This document shows positions 1,047-31,126 of a DNA stretch of 34,929 bases, piece after piece. The first letter of the stretch is position 1. Each line of letters starts with the position of its first letter. Position numbers and translations under genes: made by a program. Location of the stretch: assembly GCA_000004985.1 (NCBI GenBank), contig GG738946.1, one strand, 5' to 3'. Source of the DNA: Naegleria gruberi (taxonomy: Eukaryota). The notes beneath the pieces were generated by a model, which worked only from the letters and a program-made list of their open reading frames with translations, was not told the DNA's origin and did not search any database.

Positions 1047-3205
1047 NNNNNNNNNNNNNNNNNNNNNNNNNNNNNNNNNNNNNNNNNNNNNNNNNNNNNN
1101 NNNNNNNNNNNNNNNNNNNNNNNNNNNNNNNNNNNNNNNNNNNNNNNNNNNNNNNNNNNNNNNNNNNNNNNNNNNNNNNNNNNNNNNNNNNNNNNNNNNN
1201 NNNNNNNNNNNNNNNNNNNNNNNNNNNNNNNNNNNNNNNNNNNNNNNNNNNNNNNNNNNNNNNNNNNNNNNNNNNNNNNNNNNNNNNNNNNNNNNNNNNN
1301 NNNNNNNNNNNNNNNNNNNNNNNNNNNNNNNNNNNNNNNNNNNNNNNNNNNNNNNNNNNNNNNNNNNNNNNNNNNNNNNNNNNNNNNNNNNNNNNNNNNN
1401 NNNNNNNNNNNNNNNNNNNNNNNNNNNNNNNNNNNNNNNNNNNNNNNNNNNNNNNNNNNNNNNNNNNNNNNNNNNNNNNNNNNNNNNNNNNNNNNNNNNN
1501 NNNNNNNNNNNNNNNNNNNNNNNNNNNNNNNNNNNNNNNNNNNNNNNNNNNNNNNNNNNNNNNNNNNNNNNNNNNNNNNNNNNNNNNNNNNNNNNNNNNN
1601 NNNNNNNNNNNNNNNNNNNNNNNNNNNNNNNNNNNNNNNNNNNNNNNNNNNNNNNNNNNNNNNNNNNNNNNNNNNNNNNNNNNNNNNNNNNNNNNNNNNN
1701 NNNNNNNNNNNNNNNNNNNNNNNNNNNNNNNNNNNNNNNNNNNNNNNNNNNNNNNNNNNNNNNNNNNNNNNNNNNNNNNNNNNNNNNNNNNNNNNNNNNN
1801 NNNNNNNNNNNNNNNNNNNNNNNNNNNNNNNNNNNNNNNNNNNNNNNNNNNNNNNNNNNNNNNNNNNNNNNNNNNNNNNNNNNNNNNNNNNNNNNNNNNN
1901 NNNNNNNNNNNNNNNNNNNNNNNNNNNNNNNNNNNNNNNNNNNNNNNNNNNNNNNNNNNNNNNNNNNNNNNNNNNNNNNNNNNNNNNNNNNNNNNNNNNN
2001 NNNNNNNNNNNNNNNNNNNNNNNNNNNNNNNNNNNNNNNNNNNNNNNNNNNNNNNNNNNNNNNNNNNNNNNNNNNNNNNNNNNNNNNNNNNNNNNNNNNN
2101 NNNNNNNNNNNNNNNNNNNNNNNNNNNNNNNNNNNNNNNNNNNNNNNNNNNNNNNNNNNNNNNNNNNNNNNNNNNNNNNNNNNNNNNNNNNNNNNNNNNN
2201 NNNNNNNNNNNNNNNNNNNNNNNNNNNNNNNNNNNNNNNNNNNNNNNNNNNNNNNNNNNNNNNNNNNNNNNNNNNNNNNNNNNNNNNNNNNNNNNNNNNN
2301 NNNNNNNNNNNNNNNNNNNNNNNNNNNNNNNNNNNNNNNNNNNNNNNNNNNNNNNNNNNNNNNNNNNNNNNNNNNNNNNNNNNNNNNNNNNNNNNNNNNN
2401 NNNNNNNNNNNNNNNNNNNNNNNNNNNNNNNNNNNNNNNNNNNNNNNNNNNNNNNNNNNNNNNNNNNNNNNNNNNNNNNNNNNNNNNNNNNNNNNNNNNN
2501 NNNNNNNNNNNNNNNNNNNNNNNNNNNNNNNNNNNNNNNNNNNNNNNNNNNNNNNNNNNNNNNNNNNNNNNNNNNNNNNNNNNNNNNNNNNNNNNNNNNN
2601 NNNNNNNNNNNNNNNNNNNNNNNNNNNNNNNNNNNNNNNNNNNNNNNNNNNNNNNNNNNNNNNNNNNNNNNNNNNNNNNNNNNNNNNNNNNNNNNNNNNN
2701 NNNNNNNNNNNNNNNNNNNNNNNNNNNNNNNNNNNNNNNNNNNNNNNNNNNNNNNNNNNNNNNNNNNNNNNNNNNNNNNNNNNNNNNNNNNNNNNNNNNN
2801 NNNNNNNNNNNNNNNNNNNNNNNNNNNNNNNNNNNNNNNNNNNNNNNNNNNNNNNNNNNNNNNNNNNNNNNNNNNNNNNNNNNNNNNNNNNNNNNNNNNN
2901 NNNNNNNNNNNNNNNNNNNNNNNNNNNNNNNNNNNNNNNNNNNNNNNNNNNNNNNNNNNNNNNNNNNNNNNNNNNNNNNNNNNNNNNNNNNNNNNNNNNN
3001 NNNNNNNNNNNNNNNNNNNNNNNNNNNNNNNNNNNNNNNNNNNNNNNNNNNNNNNNNNNNNNNNNNNNNNNNNNNNNNNNNNNNNNNNNNNNNNNNNNNN
3101 NNNNNNNNNNNNNNNNNNNNNNNNNNNNNNNNNNNNNNNNNNNNNNNNNNNNNNNNNNNNNNNNNNNNNNNNNNNNNNNNNNNNNNNNNNNNNNNNNNNN
3201 NNNNN
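1047..3205. other. Assembly gap (2159 N)
   Basis: Run of n characters. Frames crossing it are meaningless. Confidence 1.
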
Positions 3206-8082: not shown

Positions 8083-11000
8083 CTACACAGACCACTGCAA
8101 TTCAACTTGTTCTTCTTCTTGAATGAACGACTCAGTATGCATTCTCTTATTTTGAATAATAATAACAATCAAAATGATAATGAGAATGAGTGGAATTATT
8201 CCAAGAAATCCTAAAAAACCAAGTTCAGCATTAGATTGCTTTCGTTTCATGATTTGAGAAGGCAAGTTATTAGATGATTCTGGAATGGTTAAAAATTCAA
8301 CCTTTTGAATAATAACTTCTTGAATAGTAACAGATTGTGCTTTTGAAGAACATTTACATTTGTAAATATTTCTATCTGAAAGTTCTGTATCACATTGAGA
8401 GAATTCACTTTGACAAATAACTTGTGAAGTTGTACTTATCTTTTTCATTGAAGTTGAATTAAATTCTTCTTCAATTGTAGAAGAATTTACAATTTTTTCA
8501 AATTGAAAATAATAAGAAATTAAGTTATTTGAAATTGAAATATTTTGATTTACAATTTCTGAATAAAGAGAATGATTAGCACTTCTTATAGTTGTTTGAA
8601 TGATGGTTGAGTTATCATTTACAATTAAAGTTTCATTCAATGTATTATAATAAATAGGTTTCATAATTAATCTTGAATAAACAACTTTTCTAAAATCAAA
8701 ATTATTAAAATAACTTAATGATGGATATTCTAAATATTTAAATCCATGATATTCAAATTTACTTTCAGATAAATCACTTGGATACATTTTTAAAGAAATA
8801 ACTAATGTCAAATCATTTTCAAAAATTACAGAACTTTTCACAAATTGACTTCTTTCTCTCAAAATCAATAAATCAGATAAACAATTCATAGTTTCATCAT
8901 AAAATTTGTTATTAATTGATAAATCTATTGATAATCTTGCTTTTACAATTAAAGAGAAAACATTTGACATTGTATTTACCAAATTTTCAGATAAAATTAA
9001 ATGTGTTAATTTCACTCCATCTTTCAATTGATTTTTAAAAATTATAAAAATTCTATTCAACATTTCGTTACATAATTCATCATAATTAATCAATAAATAA
9101 TACATTGTTGAAATTTGAGTTGATAATCTCTTTTCATTTTGAGGTTCATTCAAGTTTCTTTCTTCATATTCATCAAACATTATATTTAAAGTTTTAGATT
9201 TGGAATTTGAAATATCATTCCAATAAGTTTCATTCCAACTACAATCTAATTTTTTAAATCCTGGTAAACAGTTACATGTTTTAAATTGAGAATTATAAAT
9301 TCCACCATTAAAACATGTTGTCAATTGAGATAGAGTTGGTAAATACCTTCTTGCCATACCATCCACTGTTAATAATACATAACCAAAAACTAATTTTCTT
9401 GGATCACCTACTGGGATTGATTTATAGAATGTATCCCAAGAAGATTTCTTCAATTGAATTTCTGTCCAATTTGTTACATTTGGTAGGAGAATAGTTTGTT
9501 TTAGTTCTAATTCTGTATATGAATTAGAATAAATATTCCTAGTAGTAAAGAAGAGTGAAAGAGATTCAGAACCAGTGAAAGGAAGTTGAATATCAATTTG
9601 AGAAGATTTACCTTCATTGAGAGGAATTTTGAGTCCAGTTATAAAATCTAGGAATGAAATTTGTAATATTGTATCACTTGTAATACAACTAGAGCATGAG
9701 ATTGAAAATACAGTATCTAATGCATAACCAGTTAAAGGAGAAATAGAACAATTACATGGTTTAGGATTTAATGCAACATTAAAGTTATAAGAAAATGAAT
9801 CAAAAACCATTGATGAAATGTGAGTGACTTTGAAAGTTAAAATGTTTGAACTTCCTTCAATCAATTTAGATATTAATAAATTCATTGAATTAGATTTTGA
9901 AATATCCTTAACAACTCCTGTCAAATAATTAGATGGTAAATCATCTCCATTCAATTGCCATTTTCTTTCAATTTCTGAATCAATTCCATCAAATTTGTCA
10001 TTCAAACTCACAAGGAAATCCAATGATAGAATATCAAAAGTAGTTAATAATATTCTCTGAGGTGAAACATTCAATAAACTAATTTTTGGAATGTTTTCAA
10101 ATATTCTTTCTGAAACTTTGTTATTACCAATTTGAAGAGTTATATCAACTTGTTTAAGTGACTGAGGTATTTCAAATAATGTTTCTTTAAATTGTACAAC
10201 CCTTGTTAAAATATCAAGTAAAGATTGATCACATTGATGATTATCTTGAATACATGTAAAATTCCAATCAAACTTATTCAATAATATTGTTGATTCAATA
10301 GGAGTAATTTCTACATTCATAAGAACATGTTTGTTATCAAATATATTTGATTGATACATTATTATAGTATATTCAGGTTCCAAAGTGTGTAAAGTTATTT
10401 TCTCTGATGAAACTTTTCCAAAAATAGAAAGTATAACTTGAAATATATATTTGTTAGCCATAATATCAGAAAATGAATTAATCACCAAATCTCCATTGGA
10501 TTTTACATTAAAATCAACTGATGGTCCTTCAATTTGTTTCCATTCATATTTAATTTGGGATGTGATTGTTTCACTTAAATCTGAAAGGTCTGTATATTTT
10601 TTAATGTAAATAGGACAATTCAATGAATTAACAATCATAGATTGTGTATCATCTGCTACTTTAACTTGTGGAGCTACAAATTCTTGTTTTGTAAAATTGT
10701 AAACAATGGGATGACTACATTTAGCAAAATAATTACAAACTTCAAGTTGAAGTGAATAATTACCAGATGGAATTTCATCATATTTAAATGAAATAATTGA
10801 TGAACTATTATTAATGATTATTGGTTCAGGAGAATTGATAACATGCCAAATATAGATAATTTCATTGAAATTAATTAAAGAGCTAGTGCTAGAAGATGCA
10901 TCAATTACAATATCATCCAAAGCACCAAAGTTATGTGTTACAGTTGATAATTTAGCAATTGGTGTTGCTGGATTATCAGGAGGTTGAATTGAAATGAATA

Positions 11001-14000
11001 AATATTCAGGTGGAGAATTTTCAAACACTCTCGTATTAATTTTTAGAGTATAATTATTATTATAAAAACTATAGATTTGTAATTCGAATAAGCCAGATGT
11101 CTTGTTCTTCCAGTGACAAATAGTTGGGAAAATTCCTTGTTCAGAAACTTGAACTAATTTGTTACAGTCAACTGAATCATTTCCATAATTAGATGGAGCT
11201 TTCAAATATAAAATTAATGAATTTCCATTATCAGAGAATCTAATAATTGAAGAAATACTCGTTAAACAATCCTCTCCATAATAAGTATCTTGACACATGT
11301 TACAATTTGTTCCATTCCAATAACCTTGAATAGAATTTGAATGACACAAACATTTTCCATCATCATCTGAACATTTCCCATGAGAAGAACATGTCACATT
11401 GTCATTACAATAAGTAGAACAATTTGTTCCATAATAATTTAGAGTACAAATTTCAAATTCACAATTACTTCCATTGTAAATAACAGTTGTTGACAATATT
11501 TCACATGAACAATTATTATGGGAAGAACAATTTCCTCTTCCAGAACAAACTTGATTATCTGTTGACAGTTTACCAAAACAAATAATTGAATCAAATGTCT
11601 GATTTTCACATTCATTACCATAATAAGAATATTGACATGAACAAATATTTGGAGAAATACAAGAACCATTTCCATTACAAACATTTAAATCTATACTTTC
11701 AATTCCAAAACAGTTAAATTGAGAACATTCATCACCATAATATCCATCATAACATGTACAATTATTTGGTATTTGACATTTTCCATTTCCAGAACAAACT
11801 GAACTGTTGTTAAATAAAATATCAAAACATGAATATAAATCACATGATTCACCAAAATAATCATCTACACATGAGCAGTTATTTGGATTTAGACAAGAAC
11901 CATGAGTGGAACAAACTTGTGAAGAATTAAACAAATTTCCATAACATTGGAATAATTCACAATTATTTTCATTGTAACCTTCTTCACATGAGCAGTTATT
12001 TGGTGATACACATTCACCATGTTTTGAACAAACAGTATGATTATCAAATGGAACACCAAAACATTCATATAAATTACAACTATTTCCACTGTATCCATCT
12101 TTACATTTACATTCGTTTGGTTTAGAGCAATTTCCATGTTTTGAACAAACATTTGAAGAATTGAACAAATCTCCAAAACATTCAAATAATTCACAATCCA
12201 AACCATAATATCCATTCCTGCAATTACAATGATTTGGAGAAATACATTCACCAAATAATGAACAAACTTGTGAAGAATTAAACAAATTTCCATAACATTC
12301 AAATAATTCACATTCAAAACCAAAATATCCAAATTGACATGAACATTCATTTGGTGAAATACATAATCCATGTGATGAGCAAACTTTAGAAGAATTATAA
12401 ACAAAACTAAAGCAATTGAATAATGAACAATTATTTCCATAATGTCCCAATTGACATGAACAATTATTTGGTGAAACACAACTTCCATTCTGAGAACAAA
12501 CATTTGATGAATTAAACTCAATATCAAAACATTCAAATAATTCACAAGAATCTCCATGATAACCATTTTCACATGAACAATTATTTGGAGCAAGACATGA
12601 ACCACTTCCAGTACAAACTGTGGAGGAATTGTATAATTGACCAAAACATTCATAATTTTCACAAACATTTCCATAATATCCTAATTGACATGAACAATTT
12701 TGTGAAGATTGACAAATGCCACGTCCAGAGCAAACAAGTGAATCATTTTTTAACAAACCACTACATTCATAAAATTGACATTCTTGTCCATAATAACCTG
12801 ATTGACAAGAACAGTTTTGAGGAGTTGAACATTCTCCATGTTTCGAACACACTTGTGTGGAATTGTAAAGGTTTCCAAAACATTCGAATAATTCACATTC
12901 TTGTCCGTAATAACCATTCATACAAATGCAATTATTTGGAGAATTGCAATAACCATTGGAAGAGCAAATATTTGAATCGTTGAAAATCTTTTCATAACAT
13001 TTGAATAATTCACAATTAGATCCATAATAACCAGTATCACATGTACAATTATTTGGAGAATTGCATACACCCTTTCCATAACAAACACTTGAACTATTAA
13101 ACAAGTTTCCAAAACATTCAAAAAGTTCACAATTAATTCCATAATATCCTAATTGACATGAACAATTATTGAATGAAAGACATTGACCTTTTGATGAACA
13201 AACATGTGATGAATTGAATAAATTATCATAACATTGATATAAACTACAATCATATCCATAATAATTCTCATTACAAGTACAATTATTTGGTGATGAACAA
13301 ATGCCATTCAATGAGCAAACATTTGACATGTTAAACATTTTACCATAACAGTCAAAAGCTTCACAATTTCTTCCATAATATGCATTTTTACAATTACAAT
13401 TATCAGGTGATAAACAACTTCCATAACCTGAACAAACTGTCGAGTTATCAAATCTCAAATTAAAACAATCATAAAATTCACAATTATTTCCATAATGTCC
13501 AATTGAACATGAGCAATTATTTGGTGACAGACATGAACCAACTCCAGAACAAACACTTCCATTATTTCTATTTATCCCCAAACAATCAAATTCTGCACAT
13601 TCATATCCATAAAAATTCATAGAACATGTGCAATTATTAAAAGCAGAACAATTTCCATGTCCATAACAAACATTTGATGAATTTTTGATAATTCCAAAAC
13701 AATTATAAAGTTCACACGATATTCCATAGTATCCATTTTCACATGAACAATTATTTGGAGCAAGACATGAACCACTTCCAGTACAACCTTTTGAAGAATT
13801 GTATAATTGACCAAAACATTCATAATTTTCACAAACATTTCCATAATATCCTAATTGACATGAACAATTTTGTGAAGATTGACAAATGCCACGTCCAGAG
13901 CAAACAAATGAATCATTTTTTAACAAACCATTACATTCATAAAATTGACATTCTTCTCCATAATATCCAGATTGACAAGAACAGTTTTGAGGTGACAGAC

Positions 14001-14467
14001 AAGAGCCACGATTGGAACAAACATGTGTGGAATTGTAAAGGTTTCCAAAACATTCGAATAATTCACAATTAGATCCATAATATCCTGATCGGCATGTACA
14101 ATTATTTGGAGAATTGCATACACCCTTTCCAGAACAAACTTTTGAGGTATTGAACAGATTTCCATAACAAAAATGTGAATCACAATTAGCTCCATAATAA
14201 CCTGATTTACATGTGCAATTATTTGAACTTTGACAAGATCCGTGCCCAGAACAAACACTTGAACTATTAAACAAGTTTCCATAACAATAAAAATCCTGAC
14301 ATACAACTCCATAATATCCTGATTGACATGTGCAATTATTTGGAGAGGAGCAAGTGCCTAATGATGAACAAACACTTGAATTACTCTTCTTTATCCCAAA
14401 ACAATCAAAATCTTGACAATAACTTCCATAATAGTTTGTAAAACATGAACAATTATTTGGGGAAAGA
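8083..14467 (-). CDS. Giant type I membrane protein, distal part: tandem EGF (tenascin-type) repeats, a large Cys-poor extracellular region, a single TM helix and a short tail
   Basis: Continuous minus-strand frame. At least 26 repeats of 39 aa (C..G.....S.VCS..G.C.SPNNC.C..GYYG..CE.FEC.G) followed by about 1100 aa. The TM segment is LGFLGFLGIIPLILIIILIVIII and the tail is NKRMHTESFIQEEEQVELQWSV*. Stop at 8083-8085. The frame runs into the gap at 14468. Confidence 0.8.
11455..14467 (-). repeat. Tandem array of 117-nt units encoding 39-aa EGF-like repeats (26 visible; continues into the gap)
   Basis: Periodic 6-Cys 39-aa repeats are read directly. Near-identical ~400-nt segments recur 1170 nt apart (exactly 10 units), which alternate-frame ORFs at 12573 and 13743 also reveal. 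Confidence 0.85.
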
Positions 14468-16256
14468 NNNNNNNNNNNNNNNNNNNNNNNNNNNNNNNNN
14501 NNNNNNNNNNNNNNNNNNNNNNNNNNNNNNNNNNNNNNNNNNNNNNNNNNNNNNNNNNNNNNNNNNNNNNNNNNNNNNNNNNNNNNNNNNNNNNNNNNNN
14601 NNNNNNNNNNNNNNNNNNNNNNNNNNNNNNNNNNNNNNNNNNNNNNNNNNNNNNNNNNNNNNNNNNNNNNNNNNNNNNNNNNNNNNNNNNNNNNNNNNNN
14701 NNNNNNNNNNNNNNNNNNNNNNNNNNNNNNNNNNNNNNNNNNNNNNNNNNNNNNNNNNNNNNNNNNNNNNNNNNNNNNNNNNNNNNNNNNNNNNNNNNNN
14801 NNNNNNNNNNNNNNNNNNNNNNNNNNNNNNNNNNNNNNNNNNNNNNNNNNNNNNNNNNNNNNNNNNNNNNNNNNNNNNNNNNNNNNNNNNNNNNNNNNNN
14901 NNNNNNNNNNNNNNNNNNNNNNNNNNNNNNNNNNNNNNNNNNNNNNNNNNNNNNNNNNNNNNNNNNNNNNNNNNNNNNNNNNNNNNNNNNNNNNNNNNNN
15001 NNNNNNNNNNNNNNNNNNNNNNNNNNNNNNNNNNNNNNNNNNNNNNNNNNNNNNNNNNNNNNNNNNNNNNNNNNNNNNNNNNNNNNNNNNNNNNNNNNNN
15101 NNNNNNNNNNNNNNNNNNNNNNNNNNNNNNNNNNNNNNNNNNNNNNNNNNNNNNNNNNNNNNNNNNNNNNNNNNNNNNNNNNNNNNNNNNNNNNNNNNNN
15201 NNNNNNNNNNNNNNNNNNNNNNNNNNNNNNNNNNNNNNNNNNNNNNNNNNNNNNNNNNNNNNNNNNNNNNNNNNNNNNNNNNNNNNNNNNNNNNNNNNNN
15301 NNNNNNNNNNNNNNNNNNNNNNNNNNNNNNNNNNNNNNNNNNNNNNNNNNNNNNNNNNNNNNNNNNNNNNNNNNNNNNNNNNNNNNNNNNNNNNNNNNNN
15401 NNNNNNNNNNNNNNNNNNNNNNNNNNNNNNNNNNNNNNNNNNNNNNNNNNNNNNNNNNNNNNNNNNNNNNNNNNNNNNNNNNNNNNNNNNNNNNNNNNNN
15501 NNNNNNNNNNNNNNNNNNNNNNNNNNNNNNNNNNNNNNNNNNNNNNNNNNNNNNNNNNNNNNNNNNNNNNNNNNNNNNNNNNNNNNNNNNNNNNNNNNNN
15601 NNNNNNNNNNNNNNNNNNNNNNNNNNNNNNNNNNNNNNNNNNNNNNNNNNNNNNNNNNNNNNNNNNNNNNNNNNNNNNNNNNNNNNNNNNNNNNNNNNNN
15701 NNNNNNNNNNNNNNNNNNNNNNNNNNNNNNNNNNNNNNNNNNNNNNNNNNNNNNNNNNNNNNNNNNNNNNNNNNNNNNNNNNNNNNNNNNNNNNNNNNNN
15801 NNNNNNNNNNNNNNNNNNNNNNNNNNNNNNNNNNNNNNNNNNNNNNNNNNNNNNNNNNNNNNNNNNNNNNNNNNNNNNNNNNNNNNNNNNNNNNNNNNNN
15901 NNNNNNNNNNNNNNNNNNNNNNNNNNNNNNNNNNNNNNNNNNNNNNNNNNNNNNNNNNNNNNNNNNNNNNNNNNNNNNNNNNNNNNNNNNNNNNNNNNNN
16001 NNNNNNNNNNNNNNNNNNNNNNNNNNNNNNNNNNNNNNNNNNNNNNNNNNNNNNNNNNNNNNNNNNNNNNNNNNNNNNNNNNNNNNNNNNNNNNNNNNNN
16101 NNNNNNNNNNNNNNNNNNNNNNNNNNNNNNNNNNNNNNNNNNNNNNNNNNNNNNNNNNNNNNNNNNNNNNNNNNNNNNNNNNNNNNNNNNNNNNNNNNNN
16201 NNNNNNNNNNNNNNNNNNNNNNNNNNNNNNNNNNNNNNNNNNNNNNNNNNNNNNNN
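14468..16256. other. Assembly gap (1789 N) inside the giant gene
   Basis: n run, probably caused by collapse or uncertainty in the repeat array. Confidence 1.
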
Positions 16257-16487
16257 TAATGTTTGTAGAAGTGGCTACAAGATTATCAGCAAATGGTGTA
16301 TCTATACCAGTTCCTACAATGGTTGTAATTTTGAAAGAGGAATCAACCATTCGAATTCGGTTATTGTCAGAATCAACAATAATTATATTCCTGTCAGGAT
16401 TCAAAGAAACATGAACAGGAGAGCACAATCTGGTTGTTCTTGCATCAACTCCATCTGAATCATATCCACAAGAACCATTTCCAGCCA
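16257..16487 (-). CDS. Giant membrane protein, NHL-repeat segment (exon 2 start)
   Basis: ...VAGNGSCGYDSDGVDARTTRLCSPVHVSLNPDRNIIIVDSDNNRIRMVDSSFKITTIVGTG matches the NHL repeat pattern. It is in the same frame as the distal part. Confidence 0.7.
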
Positions 16488-16526
16488 CTAACACAACTTA
16501 ATCATATTTTAAACTTTCAAACTTAC

Positions 16527-16962
16527 CAGTTGAAATGACTCCAAAATTATCAATTTTTCTAATCTTGTGATTGTTAGTATCCGCAACAAACAAACTACCA
16601 GTTACATCATCAAAAAACACTCCTCGAGGAGAATTCATCTGTGAAGCAGTAGCCAAACCACCATCTCCATCACTTCCCTTCGTCATTTGTCCAGCAATTG
16701 TTGAAATGTATCCATATCTATCAATCTTTCTAATACGATGAAACACGTATTCTGCTACAAAGAGATCACCATCTTGATTGAATGTTAAATGACTAGGACC
16801 ACCTAACAGAGCATTCACTGCTAAGGCACCATCACATTGTTTAGAACCACCAACCTTAGTAATATAGTAGGAAGGTTTTGTTGAGGCCTCAATTAGATGC
16901 AACAGATAAAATACAACATGTAACAATACCATATAACACAGTAATACTACGAGAGACTTCAT
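16527..16962 (-). CDS. Giant membrane protein, exon 1: signal peptide plus NHL repeats
   Basis: ATG (plus-strand cat 16960-16962) in an aaaaATG context. MKSLVVLLCYMVLLHVVFYLLHLIEA is a signal-peptide-like leader. NHL repeats follow (GDLFVAEYVFHRIRKIDRYGYISTIAG; SLFVADTNNHKIRKIDNFGVIST). The exon ends at a GTAAGT donor (plus-strand acttac 16521-16526). Confidence 0.7.
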
Positions 16963-17308
16963 TTTTTTTCTTCTTTTTGAATATTTCAATGAACACAAGT
17001 AGAGTTTAATAGCACTACTACCTTACCGTGAAAACTTTAGTGTGTTGTTAATTTACCATAAGGTGATATTAGCGGTTGTTTAGTCCTTAATTGGAAGTGA
17101 AATAAAATAGTCCAAATAAGCATGGAAATTTATCAGGTTCAAAAGTAGCGACCTCCAACCAAATTTGATTTGCTGTAGAAATATGAAATTTGCTTAATAA
17201 AGAACATACAAGTTCAAAAAATTCATTCTTCTACTCTAGGATTTTCAGATTTAAATCTTAATAAATTTAATTATTTTATATATTAATTGGATTTTTAAAA
17301 TACAATCA

Positions 17309-18844
17309 TTATTCATGTACATAATTATCAACATCTGGAAATTCAATACGATAAATAGATTCAATTGGAGCCCATAAATTTTCTTCAATTTCCAAATCTT
17401 GAACTAAACCTGATGAAATGTCATAAACCCAACCATGTACGTGAATTGGTTTACCTTTTGCCCATGCTTTTTGTATAATACTTGTTTTACAAATATTTAA
17501 AGTTTGTTCAATAACATTTAATTCAATCATACGTTGCCATCTTTTTTCTTCATCTTGAATTGAATCAACTTCTTGTTTATGTAATCTATAAACATCTTTA
17601 ATATTTCTTAACCATTTATCAATTAAACCATGTGAAGTATTTTCTAATGCAGCTTTAACACCACCACATCTTGTATGTCCCATTACAATAATATGTTTAA
17701 TTTCTAAAACTTCAACTGCATATTGTAAAACAGACATTAAATTTAAATCTGTATTTACAACAATATTTGCAACATTACGATGTATAAACATTTGACCTGG
17801 ATCTATTTTTACAATACTTTCACATGATACTCTTGAATCTGAACATCCAATTAATAAAAATTTAGGTTTTTGTGTTTGTTTATGTTTTTTAAAATATTCA
17901 GAATCAATTCTAGTCTTTTCTCTAACATATTCTATATTATTCATTAATAATTTATCATAAATTTCAAATGATTGTAATTCTTCTTCATGATCTTTACAAT
18001 GAAAACAATGTTGTGAATTTTCTAATGAATGTGGTACAAATACTACTTCTGTATTTCCATTCTCTTTTAATGTATGAAATGAAAATGATCTTCCAATACT
18101 TTGAATTGGACTTTGTGGTACAAGTGGTTCTGGTGTACCAAATGGATTAAATCCATTTATATTCATATTATTTTCATTATTTTCATTATTATTAGAATTA
18201 TTCATTTCATTATTAGAATTATTCATTTCATTATTAGAATTATTATTATTAGAAGGTGTATTATTAGAATTATTATTATTATTATTATTAGAAGGTGTAT
18301 TATTTAAATATTTTAAATTATTATTATTATTAGAAATATTATTATCAGGTGAATGACTATTTTTAGTATTATTAATAATATCATTTAAAATATTACTTGT
18401 ATCAATAGAATTAGGTGATACATCATTAGAATTAATATTATTATAATTATTAGTATTAACTGATAAACGTTTTTCTTGTTTTTTCCATAAACCAATACCT
18501 CTCTTTGTTTGTTTCTTTTTATTTAAATGATTCATTGCTAATGATGTTGGTGATAATATATCATCTTCATCCATTGTTGTTATTGTAGTTGTAGTTGTTG
18601 GAGGTGTACTTGTTACATTATATATTGGTATATTATTATTATTATTAATTAATTGTTTACCAAATACAACAGTTGGAGAATAACGTTGAGTATTATTACT
18701 ATGATTACATTCTGGTGTACAATAATGTTGTTGTTCTTGTTGTTGTTGATATACTTGGGGAATTGATGATACAGTATTAGTTGAAGAGGGATTTAATGTT
18801 TTAATAATTTCCGTATCAGTTGGAGGGTTGTCAATGTGGGACAT
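17309..18844 (-). CDS. Beta-class carbonic anhydrase with a ~300-aa N/T/S-rich N-terminal extension
   Basis: C-terminal domain contains CSDSRVSCE, GQMFIHRNVANIV and LQYAVEVLEIKHIIVMGHTRCGG, the beta-CA zinc-ligand signatures (Cys/Asp/Arg...His-x-x-Cys-Gly). A single open frame from ATG 18844 to a stop at 17309. Confidence 0.8.
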   Translation of the reverse strand: MSHIDNPPTDTEIIKTLNPSSTNTVSSIPQVYQQQQEQQHYCTPECNHSNNTQRYSPTVVFGKQLINNNNNIPIYNVTSTPPTTTTTITTMDEDDILSPTSLAMNHLNKKKQTKRGIGLWKKQEKRLSVNTNNYNNINSNDVSPNSIDTSNILNDIINNTKNSHSPDNNISNNNNNLKYLNNTPSNNNNNNNSNNTPSNNNNSNNEMNNSNNEMNNSNNNENNENNMNINGFNPFGTPEPLVPQSPIQSIGRSFSFHTLKENGNTEVVFVPHSLENSQHCFHCKDHEEELQSFEIYDKLLMNNIEYVREKTRIDSEYFKKHKQTQKPKFLLIGCSDSRVSCESIVKIDPGQMFIHRNVANIVVNTDLNLMSVLQYAVEVLEIKHIIVMGHTRCGGVKAALENTSHGLIDKWLRNIKDVYRLHKQEVDSIQDEEKRWQRMIELNVIEQTLNICKTSIIQKAWAKGKPIHVHGWVYDISSGLVQDLEIEENLWAPIESIYRIEFPDVDNYVHE

Positions 18845-19827: not shown

Positions 19828-20163
19828 ATGAAATTTAATAATTCCTATCAATTATTAAATAAACAAGAAGAGGAATTAGAATATATAGATAATAATTGTA
19901 TAGGTTTAATAGAAGAACAAGAAGAAGAATATAATCATCATCAACATCAACATCATTATAAAAGAATGAATAATGATGAATCTATTTATATATTAAAAAA
20001 TAAATCATCCTATCGAACATTAGATTCTATTAATTTAATTAATAATGATGATTTAATTAATAATAATTTAAATAATTTAAATAATAATTTAAATAGTTTT
20101 AATAATAACAATGAAATACCATTATATGATAATATAAAATTAAATTATAATAATTGTGAATTA
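19828..20163 (+). CDS. Candidate first exon (N-rich leader) of the P4-ATPase gene; its join to the next exon is unresolved
   Basis: ATG 19828 after a long AT-rich promoter. The open N-rich frame ends TAA 20164-20166. It overlaps the next open frame in a different phase (see findings). Confidence 0.3.
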
Positions 20164-21022
20164 TAATAATAATAATTTAAATAATTTAAATTATGATAAT
20201 AGAAATATATTTATAAAAATTAAAGATTATTTATTAAAAACAAATAAATATTATAGTAGAAGTATATTTTTACCAAATGGATTAACTTATCCTAAAAATC
20301 AAAAATATCCTAAAAATGAAATTAAAAATCGTAGATATAATTTATTTACATTTTTACCACTTGTTTTATTTGAACAATTTAAATTTTTTTTTAATTTATA
20401 TTTTTTAATTGTTGCACTTTCACAAATAATTCCACAATTACAAGTTGGTTTTTTATTTACCTATGTTGCTCCTTTAGTTTTTGTTTTATCTGTTACTTTA
20501 TTAAAAGAATTATATGATGATTTAAAAAGATATAAAAGAGATTTAGAATCAAATTCACAATTATATAATGTTTTAAATAATTTAAATAATAATAATAATT
20601 TAAATAATAATAATATAAATAATAATTTTATTAAAAAACCATCATCAAATATTCAAGTTGGAGATTTAATTCAAATAGAAAGTAATCAAAGAATACCAGC
20701 TGATTGTATTTTATTAAAAACAACAGAGAAATCAGGTGCATCTTTTATTAGAACAGATCAATTAGATGGTGAAACTGATCAAAAATTAAGACATGCTATT
20801 CCAACTACTCAAAAATTACATTTAAATCAATTAAGAAAAATTATTGCTAATTTATATATTGAAAAACCTAAAAAGGATATTTATGATTTTTTAGGTAATT
20901 TTACTTGTTATGATATTGATGGTAATGTTAAAATTGTTGAAAGTTTATCTTTAGAAAATACTTTATGGGCAAATACTGTTGTTGCTACTGGTACTATTAT
21001 AGCTTTAGTTATTTATACAGGT
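20156..21022 (+). CDS. P4-type (phospholipid flippase) ATPase homolog, exon with the N-terminal motif, TM1-2 and A-domain
   Basis: YPKNEIKNRRYNLFTFLPLVLFEQFKFFFNLYFLIVALSQIIPQLQ matches the P4-ATPase N-terminal signature. PADCILL and TDQLDGETDQK correspond to the DGET motif. The exon ends ...VIYTG before a GTATGT donor at 21023. Confidence 0.75.
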
Positions 21023-21125
21023 GTATGTTTTTATTTTTAAATATTTAATTATATTTATTTTAATATTCATTTTAAATTTTTTAATTGTAATATTTAATTT
21101 TTAAATATATTTAAATATTTTAAAG

Positions 21126-21402
21126 AGAGAAACAAGAAGTTCATTAAATGCAAGTCAACCTAGATCCAAAGTAGGAAAATTAGATCAAGAATTAAATACA
21201 ATTTCTAAATTTTTATTTATATTAATGGTAATAATAAGTATATTTATGGTAGCATTAAAACAATTTCAAGGATTATGGTATATTACTATATTTAGATTTA
21301 TATTACTATTTTCATCAATTATACCAATTAGTTTAAGAGTTAATTTAGATATGGGTAAAACAGTTTATTCATTTTTTATTATGAAAGATAAAAAAATACC
21401 TG
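21126..21402 (+). CDS. P4-ATPase homolog exon (TM3-TM4)
   Basis: Begins after the acceptor aaag at 21125. [29 protein letters not shown] aligns to the P4 TM4 IPISL motif. Ends ...KKIPG with donor G|GTATTT at 21403. Confidence 0.65.
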
Positions 21403-21518
21403 GTATTTAAGGTAATTTATTTTTATATATATTTATATTTAATTATATTTAATATTTTAATTTTAATTTATTTTTTATTTTTATTTTTTAATTTAATTTT
21501 AATAGAAATTACATTTAG

Positions 21519-23076
21519 GTAATATATCATATAATGAAGATGGATTTGAACAAGTTAAAGAACATGTAACAAATTGTTATATAAATAATTCTAATAATTC
21601 AAATGATAATCAAATTAAAGAATTTATTAAAGCACTTGCATTATGTCATAATGTTACACCTATCATACAATCTAATAATAATATGAATAATATGAATAAT
21701 AGTATAGATGATAATTTAGATGATTTAAATAATATAAATAATAATATAAATATAGAAAGAGAATATCAAGGATCATCACCTGATGAAATAGCACTTGTTA
21801 AATTTGCAGAACAAAGTGGATTAATATTAGAAAATAGAACATTAACACAAATGACATTACGTAATCCAAATAATGAATTTGAAAATTATGAAATTTTAAA
21901 TATATTTCCATTTACAAGTTCATCTAAACGTATGGGTATTATAATTAAAAGAAAATTTAATAATAATTTAAATAATAATAATAATATAAATAATAATATA
22001 AATAATATAAATAATATAAATAATATAAATGAAGAAATAATATATTATTGTAAAGGAGCAGATTCAATAATGAAAAAATTAATAAAAACATCACAATTAG
22101 AATGGTTAGATGAAGAAGCAGATAATATGGCAAGAGAAGGATTACGTACACTTGTATTTGGATATAAAAAATTAAGTAAAATAGAATATTTAGAATTTAT
22201 AAATGAATATAAAAAAGCAACATCATTAATTAATGATAGAATTATAGAAATTGATAGAATTAAAAATAAATATTTAGATTCAGGTGATTTAAATATAATA
22301 GGAATATCAGGAGTTGAAGATTTATTACAAGAAAATGTACAACAATCTTTAGAACAATTAAGAAATGCTGGAATTAAAATTTGGATGTTAACTGGTGATA
22401 AAGTTGAAACTGCTATTTGTATTAGTAGATCTACTAAATTAGTTTCAAGAAATCAACAAATATTTCAAATCATTTCTTTAGATTTAAATAATATTAATAA
22501 TTTATTAGATGAATTTAATCAATTAAATGATTTTAATCAATTTAATTTTAATTCAAATAATTCAAATAATAATTTTAATAATTCAAATAATTTTAATAAT
22601 AATTTAAATTTAAATAATACAATTAATTGTGGATTAATTATAGATGGAGATACATTACAAATAGCATTAGATAAATTAGGAGATAAATTTATAAAAATAG
22701 CATGTAAAGCAACATCAGTTATTTGTTGTAGATGTTCACCAACACAAAAAGCTCAAGTAGTTTCACTTGTTAAAAAATTAACTAGAAAACAAACAGCAGC
22801 AATAGGAGATGGTGGTAATGATGTATCAATGATATTAAATGCTAATGTTGGTATTGGTATTGTTGGTAAAGAAGGTAAACATGCTTCATTAGCTGCTGAT
22901 TTTTCAATTAATCAATTTTCATATTGTACTGATTTAATTTTATGGCATGGTAGAAATTCTTATAAGAGATCAGCTGCTTTATCTCAATTTATTATACATA
23001 GAGGTTTAATTATATCTGTTATACAAGCTATATTTAGTTCAATGTTTTATTTTTCTACTATTGCTATTTTTACTGG
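21519..23076 (+). CDS. P4-ATPase homolog exon (N-domain and P-domain)
   Basis: Contains LALCHNV, SPDEIALVKFAEQSG, FTSSSKRMGIIIKRK, CKGADS, EGLRTLVFGYK, TGDKVETAICI, IIDGDTL, VICCRCSPTQKAQVV, AIGDGGNDVSMILNANVGIGIVGKEG and LWHGRNSYKRS. The frame is open from the acceptor tttag at 21518 to a GTATGT donor at 23077. Confidence 0.8.
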
Positions 23077-23176
23077 GTATGTTTTTTTTATTATTTATTT
23101 AATATTTACAATTTTTTTATTATTTATTTAATTTTATAATTTAATTTTATTATTTATTATTTTAATTTTATAATAG

Positions 23177-23699
23177 ATGGCTACTTGTTGGATATGCAAC
23201 ATATTATACTAATTTTTCAGTATTTTCATTAATTTTAGACGAAGATGTTAAAAGAAGTACAGTTTATTTATTTCCAGAATTATATAAAGAATTACAAAAA
23301 GGAAGAGTTTTATCATTTAAAACATTTTTAATTTGGTGTTTAAAAGCAACCTATCAAGGTGGTATTATAATGATATTAGCAATATTTTTATTTGAAAATA
23401 ATTTTTTAAGAATTCAAACAATTTCATTTACTGCTTTAATTTTAACAGAAGTTGTAATGGTTTCTATTGAAGTACATCGTAAATTTAATCCTTTAATTAT
23501 TTTATCTGAAATTTTATCAATTTCTATTTATATTGGTTCAATGTTTTTATTACCTTCCTACTTTGATTTACCTTTTATTATGACTTTTGATTTTTGGTGG
23601 AAATCTATTGTCATTACCATTGCTTCAACTTCTGTTGTTGCCATTTTCAAGATTATTTATTCAAGAATTAATCCACCTGTTTGGTCAAAATTGAATTAA
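23177..23699 (+). CDS. P4-ATPase homolog, terminal exon (C-terminal TM helices)
   Basis: Follows a 100-nt intron (23077-23176, taatag). FPELYKELQKGRVLSFKTFLIW and several TM helices. Stop TAA 23697-23699. Confidence 0.75.
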
Positions 23700-23738: not shown

Positions 23739-25646
23739 TTATCTTCTATTATTTCCATATTGTTGTTGCTGATGTTGCTGATGATGAGAAGAAGAAGAAG
23801 CAGTACGTGATGAATTATTAGCAACCATTGGAACAGGAGGTGGAGGTTGTCTAGTACTACTGCTGCTGCTATTATTATTGATTGAATTTGGTAAATGTTG
23901 TTCACAAATGAGACATAACATTCTTACAATATCTAAAAATTCCTTTAAATAATTTACCAAATCAAATAAACGTGATTTAGATTGAAAAATAACTCTTGTA
24001 TCACATTCAACTTCAATTTCAAAAGTAGATAATTTTGTAGATTCAATAATTTCACCATTCTTATGACAATTAAAAGATTCAACACTTGTTAAATCAATTC
24101 TACAAATACCAAAAGTGTATGAAATTCTTGATTTTCTTCTAATTTTCTTTGGTTTATCAACATTTAAATCTGGAAATCTATCAATTTTCTTTTCTCTTCT
24201 AAATGAAATTCTAAAATCATGAACTCTGTGTGGACATGAAAAATCAATATCACCATTTTCAAGTCTTGATTTTATCATTGCACGTATTGGTTTATCAGTT
24301 TCAGTATCAAATGTAACTCTAATATCACGATGATCTAATTCACCTTCTTCATTTCTAACATCATCTTCTGAAGGTGGTAAATAATATTCATAAAATTTAT
24401 CAGTTTCATTACATCTACCATAGGTTATTATTGGTCCATTATATTGTTTCTTCTTTTTTAAATCTTGTAATGAACTATATCTTTCATTTAATAAATTATT
24501 TACATATTTAAATATTTCAGGTGGAATTCTTGATTGAAATTCACAATCTTTAGATCTATGAACTATTACTTCTGATAATAAATGACTTCCATTTGTTAAT
24601 TGTGGTATCATTCTTTGTTTACGATCTTTAACTATTAAATATCCAACTTTACCTTCCAATTCTATATTATCAGTTTCAGAAAGTGAAAATATAAATTGTC
24701 CTAATTTTCTAATACTTTCATCATACATTAAATCATTTCCAAATAATGCATTAGCTGCACTTGTAAATGGACCATATATATTTAATACAGGTGGTAATGT
24801 TGTATTAATTGTTGTATTGGTTGTTGTTGTTGATGATGATGAGTTATTGTTATTAGTATTACTAGTATTATTATTATTATTGGATTGTACATTGGAGGCT
24901 TGATCAGAATTATTAGATTGATCCTTCTTTGATTTTTTAGGCTTTGGTTGTTTCTTAGGCTTCTTTTCCTTTGTTTGTTGTTCTTTAGATGAAGAAGTGC
25001 TGGTGTTGGTGTTGGTAATATTGGATGAAGCTAATGAATTTGCTATTGAAGGTTGTGGTGGTGGAGGTACATTCATCTTTGGAAGAGGTGGTGGAGGTTG
25101 TTTAGAATATTGTTGTTGAGTTGGCATAAATTGAGGTAAAGCAGGAGCAGTAGCACTTCTTAAATTGTTTTGTGGAATTTGTTTACTTGTTGGTGGAGGT
25201 GGAAATGAATGAATTTCTTCAGATTCCTCTTCTTCCTCTTCTTCCTCCTCTTCATCCTCATCTTGTTCTTCTCTTGTTCTTTTAAATTGTGTTGTTGTTG
25301 TTGTTGGTTGAGTATTGAATGGTAATGATCCAAATGCTGATGGTGCAAATCCACCTAATTTACCTGTTGCAGCAGATGTTGTTGAAGAAGGCATCAAGGC
25401 ATTAGAATACATTGGTGGTGGAAATAGTGAAGCTCCATGAGGTGGTGGTAAACCACCAGGTGTTGAGCCTTGTTGAGATGTTGGTTGATATTTACTAGTA
25501 AATGAAGTGAGTGGTGGTATTGTACCTGGATAGAATAGATTTGGTTGTAGACTAGGATATTGTCCTCCTGATGATACTCCTGGTAAACCTGGTGGTGCTA
25601 AACCTCCATACAATTGATGATGAGGTGGTGGAGGTGGATTATTCAT
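23739..25646 (-). CDS. Protein with a C-terminal Cet1-like RNA 5'-triphosphatase (triphosphate tunnel metalloenzyme) domain and a Pro/Gln/Ser-rich acidic N-terminal half
   Basis: NIELEGKVGYLIV matches the TTM motif A (E-x-E-x-K-x-G). RKSRISYTFGICRIDLTSV and the C-terminal STFEIEVECD (alternating Glu beta-strand) resemble Cet1/Prt1-type triphosphatases. A single open frame from ATG 25646 to a stop at 23739. Confidence 0.55.
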   Translation of the reverse strand: MNNPPPPPHHQLYGGLAPPGLPGVSSGGQYPSLQPNLFYPGTIPPLTSFTSKYQPTSQQGSTPGGLPPPHGASLFPPPMYSNALMPSSTTSAATGKLGGFAPSAFGSLPFNTQPTTTTTQFKRTREEQDEDEEEEEEEEEESEEIHSFPPPPTSKQIPQNNLRSATAPALPQFMPTQQQYSKQPPPPLPKMNVPPPPQPSIANSLASSNITNTNTSTSSSKEQQTKEKKPKKQPKPKKSKKDQSNNSDQASNVQSNNNNNTSNTNNNNSSSSTTTTNTTINTTLPPVLNIYGPFTSAANALFGNDLMYDESIRKLGQFIFSLSETDNIELEGKVGYLIVKDRKQRMIPQLTNGSHLLSEVIVHRSKDCEFQSRIPPEIFKYVNNLLNERYSSLQDLKKKKQYNGPIITYGRCNETDKFYEYYLPPSEDDVRNEEGELDHRDIRVTFDTETDKPIRAMIKSRLENGDIDFSCPHRVHDFRISFRREKKIDRFPDLNVDKPKKIRRKSRISYTFGICRIDLTSVESFNCHKNGEIIESTKLSTFEIEVECDTRVIFQSKSRLFDLVNYLKEFLDIVRMLCLICEQHLPNSINNNSSSSSTRQPPPPVPMVANNSSRTASSSSHHQQHQQQQYGNNRR

Positions 25647-30903: not shown

Positions 30904-31051
30904 TATACAGGTTGTTATCTTCTTAGTAAAATTTCACTTTGTGATATTGGAATGAGATGATTTTGTAAAAACACTCCAATCAATTCTCACCTATCTCTCA
31001 ACTGATTAGTGAAAAAGTTGATAAATCGTGGCTAGTCCAATAGAAATTTAA

Positions 31052-31061
31052 GGCGCCAAAA
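31052..31061. promoter_or_regulatory. Second E2F-like half-site GGCGCCAAAA about 70 nt upstream of the DHFR-TS ATG, next to a CCAAT box (31037-31041)
   Basis: aaggcgccaaaatt read directly. agtccaatag lies 15 nt upstream. Confidence 0.4.
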
Positions 31062-31126
31062 TTCAAAAACTATCCGTTAAATATTTTCCCACCATCACAA
31101 ACACTGAAAAAGAACAAAGAAAAAAA

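Follow-up and report, generated by a model that had tools for sequence, protein, structure and literature searches.

A repeat-flanked 95-nt deletion appears to break the recorded copy of the ATP9/Neo1-type flippase gene of Naegleria gruberi

Results and Discussion

The ATP9/Neo1-type flippase gene recorded in the draft genome of Naegleria gruberi appears to be a copy broken by a 95-nt deletion, and we consider it probable (roughly 0.75) that the organism itself keeps an intact copy, the recorded one being either an artefact or a null allele carried by one haplotype. An intact, working copy in the organism is thus presumed here. The lesion looks like an ordinary one, a repeat-flanked, frameshifting deletion in a draft scaffold, and not like a new kind of inactive flippase. 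Throughout, "the window" means the entire stretch of 34,929 nt that was analyzed, which is the whole of the small scaffold GG738946.1 of the N. gruberi draft.

A flippase of the P4B class

The plus strand of the window codes for a P4-ATPase between about positions 19828 and 23699. Its closest homologues are heterolobosean proteins, from N. lovaniensis (66% identity), Willaertia magna (61%), and Acrasis kona (54%), and these are followed in the protein search by hundreds of flippases of the ATP9/Neo1 type. Named matches carried the labels "ATPase IIA/IIB" or "NEO1" or were called aminophospholipid-translocase proteins. The top solved structures were ATP9A (9vdk, 1e-56) and Neo1 (7rd6/9bs1, 2e-33); the P4A chains among the structure matches listed (ATP11C and one other) scored 5e-12 or weaker. 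Four Pfam families were matched above their cut-offs: PF16209 (65 bits), PF16212 (133 bits), PF00122 (52 bits), and PF13246 (37 bits). The PhoLip_ATPase_N and PhoLip_ATPase_C domains flank the E1-E2_ATPase and Cation_ATPase N-domain modules, giving the full P4 architecture except for the start of the HAD domain, whose Pfam match in the window product begins only at profile position 76. The same Pfam architecture is found in the monomeric P4B flippases ATP9A (9vdk) and Neo1 (7rd6, 9bs1). Members of this subclass flip lipids without the help of a Cdc50 beta-subunit, a property that would be moot for a truncated product. Judged by these likenesses, the locus is the N. gruberi ortholog of the P4B flippases (human ATP9A/B and yeast Neo1).

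The initial annotation had proposed looking elsewhere in the genome for a paralogue that retains the DKTGT phosphorylation motif, but none of class 2 is visible in the N. gruberi proteome. Protein searches with the full-length sequence, with exons 2 and 3, and with a reconstructed exon 2 returned neither an N. gruberi protein encoded by this gene nor one from a class-2 paralogue. As no such protein came up, the gene is, as far as these searches can detect, the only P4B (ATP9/Neo1) ortholog of the species and not a spare copy. A literature search found no papers tying N. gruberi to P4-ATPases.

Exon structure and the missing block

We re-read the gene as four exons and three introns, preceded by an upstream ORF, as follows.

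19828-20166, plus strand: upstream ORF of 112 codons, with its ATG at 19828, one frame off exon 1; probably the N-terminal coding part of the flippase gene
20144-20166, plus strand: second ORF-breaking lesion, a 1-nt frameshift needed to link the ATG ORF with exon 1
20156-21022, plus strand: exon 1, 5' limit uncertain; LFEQF, TM1-2, and the A domain with DGET; ends ...VIYTG
21023-21125, plus strand: intron 1, 103 nt, GTATGT...AAAG, 5% G+C
21126-21411, plus strand: exon 2; TM3-TM4 with PISL, the deletion junction, then VFK
21401-21405, plus strand: deletion junction TGGTA, the single remaining repeat copy; sequence CCTGGTATTTAAGG
21408-21410, plus strand: in-frame TAA resulting from the deletion, where the ORF ends ...KKIPGI*, just 5' of the native donor
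21412-21505, plus strand: native intron 2, 94 nt, AAG/GTAATT...TAATAG/, phase 0, 2% G+C
21506-23076, plus strand: exon 3; starts KLHLGNISY, carries the N domain (SPDE, KGAD), the P domain (TGDK, GDGGND), and LWHGR, and ends ...IFTG
23077-23176, plus strand: intron 3, 100 nt, GTATGT...ATAATAG
23177-23699, plus strand: exon 4, C-terminal membrane segments; stop codon at 23697-23699

The P4-ATPase landmarks other than DKTGT had been described as present and in order, and all of them were located on the plus strand: LFEQF (20366-20380), DGET (20765-20776), PISL (21324-21335), SPDE (21776-21787), KGAD (22052-22063), TGDK (22391-22402), GDGGND (22805-22822), and LWHGR (22940-22954). The nucleotide-binding and P-domain motifs of a working P-type ATPase (KGAD, TGDK, GDGxND) are retained. 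The reported absence of DKTGT also held: none of the window's six frames encodes a DKTGT-like peptide. In an alignment of 119 orthologs, the window product has a gap of exactly 31 columns, a stretch without length variation, which spans the invariant D-K-T-G-T columns (kept in 118 to 119 of the 119) that hold the catalytic aspartate. At its edges, the threonine after IPG is found in 119/119 orthologs and the methionine before [VIE]FK in 118/119. Against the ATP9A chain, exon 2 aligns to residues 246-341 and the sequence from VFK onward to residues 370-524, so that some 30 residues (roughly 339-369), which link TM4 to the P domain and include the phospho-accepting aspartate, are without counterpart in the window. 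The motif originally quoted for the missing stretch is the P4A form and not the P4B form.

In place of the missing block, the initial annotation had drawn a 116-nt intron at 21403-21518 that could not encode the motif. This interval does run from GT to AG, has 5% G+C, and would join ...KKIPG to NISY... in frame, yet it is not intron throughout. Its first nine nucleotides, 21403-21411 (GTA TTT AAG), read VFK and end directly 5' of a donor, AAG/GTAATT (21411/21412); its last 13 nucleotides, together with the next two (21506-21520, AAA TTA CAT TTA GGT), read KLHLG in the frame of exon 3 and begin directly 3' of an acceptor, TAATAG (21505/21506). Joined over 21412-21505, VFK and KLHLG give the Acrasis sequence and the column consensus of the 119-ortholog alignment, and they flank the 31-column gap. 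By chance, a VFK-like match that is in phase and abuts a GT would be expected with a probability of about 0.004 to 0.005, and a KLHLG-like match with a probability of at most 5e-6.

The 94-nt interval between these remnants resembles introns 1 and 3 (103 and 100 nt) in length and in composition (2 to 5% G+C), and its acceptor resembles that of intron 3 (AATAG). The G-rich string GGTATTTAAGG, in contrast, is unlike the interiors of the three introns, which have 2 to 5% G+C. Taken together, the coding remnants, the intron-like character of 21412-21505, and the nonintronic character of this string place the native intron at 21412-21505. Some uncertainty attaches to its donor, because GTAATT lacks the +5 G and N. 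lovaniensis has no intron at FK/K. The window's three other confident donors (GTATGT, GTATGT, and GTAAGT) all have the +5 G; GTATTT at 21403 also differs from them, as had been pointed out. The 94-nt intron is read from the N. gruberi sequence itself and, on the data at hand, would be specific to the N. gruberi lineage. The VFK frame stays open through the whole of this intron (21403-21520), which is probably a by-product of its A/T-only composition. We also considered that the AT-only interval might have been copied from another intron or might be a degenerate form of the lost exon; both ideas were rejected, as the matches were of low complexity only.

The size of the loss follows from the codons at the gap. 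Between IPG and VFK, 31 residues (93 nt) are gone, and the window retains only GGTA where a glycine and a valine codon take six bases, which adds 2 nt and brings the loss to 95 nt. The missing stretch had initially been put at about 30 aa, but the loss is not a clean in-frame block. As 95 is not a multiple of three, exon 2 reads ...KKIPGI and then meets a stop. A single 95-nt deletion together with a 94-nt phase-0 intron accounts for the frames of exon 2, VFK, and exon 3, and we treat the closeness of the two lengths as coincidence. The junction lies in contiguous sequence and does not adjoin an N gap; for comparison with reads, the junction as assembled is ATACCTGGTATTTAAGGTAATT.

It is also possible to say what probably flanked the lost sequence. 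Threonine codons begin with A, methionine is ATG, and the window supplies CCT GGT A on one side and GTA on the other, so that TGGTA would have stood at both edges, 95 nt apart. We infer from this that a 5-nt direct repeat (CCT GGT ACN ... ATG GTA) flanked the lost 95 nt. Deletions between short repeats that arise by replication slippage or microhomology-mediated end joining likewise leave one repeat copy at the junction and remove one repeat spacing, here a single TGGTA and 95 nt; in the present case, the second copy is deduced from the invariant Thr and Met codons of the relatives. In the mechanism that we propose, 95 nt would have been lost inside exon 2 between the two TGGTA repeats, CCT GGT A(CN) and (A)TG GTA TTT AAG, which would be a signature of slippage or of a microhomology-mediated event. 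Such a deletion would take out 31 codons, including that for the phospho-accepting aspartate, shift the frame, and bring the TAA at 21408-21410 into frame, while leaving the native 94-nt intron and its flanking VFK/KLHLG codons untouched. On a natively spliced mRNA, reading would then end after TM4, making the allele a null. The product as assembled is, by its predicted sequence, unable to form the aspartyl-phosphate intermediate.

Three ways in which the block might still be supplied were rejected on logic. These are a trans-supplied mini-exon, RNA editing, and translational bypassing: nothing lies between 21402 and 21403 that could host an intron, and bypassing cannot create 31 specific residues.

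A second lesion near the N terminus

The gene cannot be read without a break from a start codon to its last domain. Exon 1 is devoid of ATG codons, and the one ORF upstream that has an ATG (19828-20166) lies in another frame; in N. lovaniensis, about 100 residues precede the YDRRN motif. The exon-1 frame is interrupted by stops as far down as 20143, and the frame of the upstream ORF closes at 20164-20166. A conserved YDNRNIF...KD motif just downstream fixes the exon-1 reading frame down to 20144. No AG acceptor was found between 20144 and 20200, and a cryptic intron that would rescue the N-terminal frame was rejected, as the only in-frame GT-AG bridges remove the conserved YDNRNIF...KD. Given an exon 1 without ATG, the mismatch in frame, and the lack of an acceptor or a tolerable bridge, a 1-nt frameshift is required to connect the two parts. 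This second frameshift, in an N-rich N-terminal region (an AAT-rich tract at about 20150-20166), would also break the ORF.

Conservation of the remaining coding sequence

Outside the two lesions, the gene looks much like those of its relatives. At 245 near-invariant columns, the window product differs at 10, compared with 8 each for N. lovaniensis and Willaertia. Six of the 10 differences are common to N. lovaniensis and/or Willaertia; the four unique ones are three conservative replacements (V>I, E>D, and L>I) and P>S. With Willaertia as the outgroup, the N. gruberi branch is longer, with 111 unique changes versus 50, and the excess goes toward FYMINK residues (50/111) and away from GARP residues. 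The ratio of unique changes is equal on either side of the new stop (39:17 upstream and 72:33 downstream). Relaxed constraint was rejected as the source of the excess substitutions, which stem from AT bias and are as marked upstream of the lesion as downstream; the pattern appears to fit an AT mutational drive and not relaxed selection. Since the gene shows no decay elsewhere, the lesion should be either very recent or not biological, and normal conservation would follow just as well from a very recent lesion as from an artefact.

The N. lovaniensis ortholog, C9374_004224 (PYSW02000020.1), has the same motifs and is 66% identical over its full length and 74% identical over commonly aligned columns. 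Two introns interrupt its gene, one after YTG and one after FTG, matching introns 1 and 3 of the window in position. The gene codes continuously from IPG through FK/K, with a complete DKTGT block and no intron there. The N. lovaniensis locus has 37% G+C, versus about 24% for the window.

Genomic surroundings

The scaffold is 35 kb long and contains N runs at 1047-3205 and 14468-16256. Outside these runs, its G+C content is about 24%, with 2 to 5% in the introns; the N. gruberi genome as a whole has 35% (PMC6125883). Three ORFs of the window, each a single exon, match N. gruberi proteins exactly, namely, EFC36083, EFC36084 (a bifunctional DHFR-TS), and EFC36089. These neighboring proteins have one recorded contig each, and the exact DHFR-TS protein was found on one contig only.

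Several features of the neighboring genes can be recorded here. Proteins of the window carry long poly-Asn tracts. On the minus strand, a giant gene at 8083-16998 is split by the N gap at 14468-16256 and encodes N-terminal NHL/teneurin-NHL repeats, dozens of teneurin-type EGF repeats, a REJ domain, and a C-terminal membrane anchor; the teneurin-like pairing of NHL and EGF repeats is unusual for a heterolobosean. A 39-nt intron (16487-16525, minus strand, GTAAGT...TTAG) links two NHL-repeat ORFs (...GVIST/VAGNGS...) and takes out an apparent in-frame stop. The ORF at 17309-18844 (minus strand) encodes a beta-class carbonic anhydrase, in which an Asn/Thr-rich N-terminal extension of about 330 residues precedes the Pro_CA domain (residues 330-481). 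Downstream of the flippase gene, its stop (23697-23699) and that of a convergent mRNA 5'-phosphatase gene (23739-23741) are separated by a gap of 39 nt, which leaves room only for overlapping or extremely short 3' untranslated regions.

A Logan contig from run ERR1598038 is collinear with 31042-34307 of the window (the DHFR-TS end) at 89% DNA identity and has 27% G+C. The organism in this run is closely related to NEG-M and might provide an intact flippase locus. Its flippase gene was not found with the exon-2/3 query or with the reconstructed intact exon 2; the top short matches to the latter query come from unrelated eukaryotes. A scan of JGI metagenomes gave a single match, at 27% identity.

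Possible origins of the deletion

The initial annotation had offered three readings of the locus, and of these a recent pseudogene and a local deletion in the assembly are favored by our results over a catalytically dead paralogue retained under selection. If the organism does keep an intact copy, the deletion may tentatively be traced to this AT-rich 35-kb scaffold itself, where it could have arisen in a sequencing clone or through a consensus of low coverage. We think of a cloning or consensus defect because the scaffold is small, gap-ridden, and unusually AT-rich and has two ORF-breaking lesions in one gene. AT-rich inserts are prone to deletions in E. coli clones. The draft is an 8x Sanger consensus, in which a false deletion of 95 bp rarely arises, and this counts against an artefact. 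The strain is also heterozygous and polyploid, and the recorded copy could, though this is rather unlikely, be a real null allele that this clonal strain carries on one of its haplotypes. In exact look-ups among protein records, the flippase ORFs had no match; those looked up were the 482-aa exon-3 ORF, the 61-aa exon-2 ORF closed by the new stop, the exon-4, upstream, and GTG-start exon-1 ORFs, and the spliced 638-aa product.

Should both lesions instead be real and present on every haplotype, the gene would be a recent pseudogene and NEG-M would have no functional P4B flippase. We regard this as improbable. Two independent ORF-breaking lesions within one gene speak for it, as do the junction in contiguous sequence away from N gaps, the N. 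gruberi proteome, in which our searches found neither a protein model for the gene nor a second class-2 gene, and the history of NEG-M as an axenic clone propagated for long. Set against these points are the rest of the gene, which is conserved like its functional relatives and has not accumulated extra changes past the stop, and the block itself, which is intact in 119/119 orthologs across many eukaryote groups; a loss would thus need very recent timing. Also, the yeast member of the class, Neo1, is described as essential (PMC12494553). A further departure from the preferred reading concerns the exons: exon 2 could end at 21402 (G/GTATTT), with VFK a chance match, and the deletion could have fused two introns into a chimeric one, with loss of the 3' part of the first, a DKTGT mini-exon of about 100 nt, and the 5' part of the second. 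Exon 2 does stay in frame up to a GT, and AT-only introns could recombine or collapse. However, this arrangement has to accept VFK in the right phase before a GT as an accident, at the low probability given above, and a G-rich GGTATTTAAGG among intron interiors of 2 to 5% G+C; neither position carries an intron in N. lovaniensis, and more events are needed than a single repeat-flanked deletion. We find this arrangement quite improbable, although less so than the reading that follows.

That reading is a dead pseudo-flippase under selection, in which the deletion would be real and a weak splice from GTATTT (21403) to TTTAG (21518) would yield an in-frame product that lacks the phosphorylation loop and serves a noncatalytic role. 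No GT-AG pair other than 21403/21518 restores the frame, and all the other motifs, together with 523 and 174 downstream codons, are open and conserved. But an intact native donor and acceptor lie 9 nt and 13 nt inside this interval and would yield a premature stop, and the skipped VFK and KLHL codons are still perfect, as expected of a very recent event and not of a long-selected state. The ORF is independently broken by the N-terminal frameshift, the gene is the only P4B ortholog with no spare paralogue beside it, and the kept KGAD, TGDK, and GDGGND would, by our reasoning, be purposeless without the aspartate. For all these reasons, we hold a selected dead flippase to be very improbable.

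Implications

The preferred reading, a copy broken by a 95-nt deletion in an organism that keeps an intact one, bears mainly on how the genome is used. Proteome-based surveys of presence and absence would wrongly score N. gruberi as being without P4B flippases; with no model of its only Neo1/ATP9-type gene among the proteins searched, such a false absence is likely in surveys of the N. gruberi proteome. The deletion would be of biological interest only if reads place it on every haplotype. In that event, a free-living eukaryote, or an axenic laboratory strain of one, would be without a flippase class that is essential in yeast.
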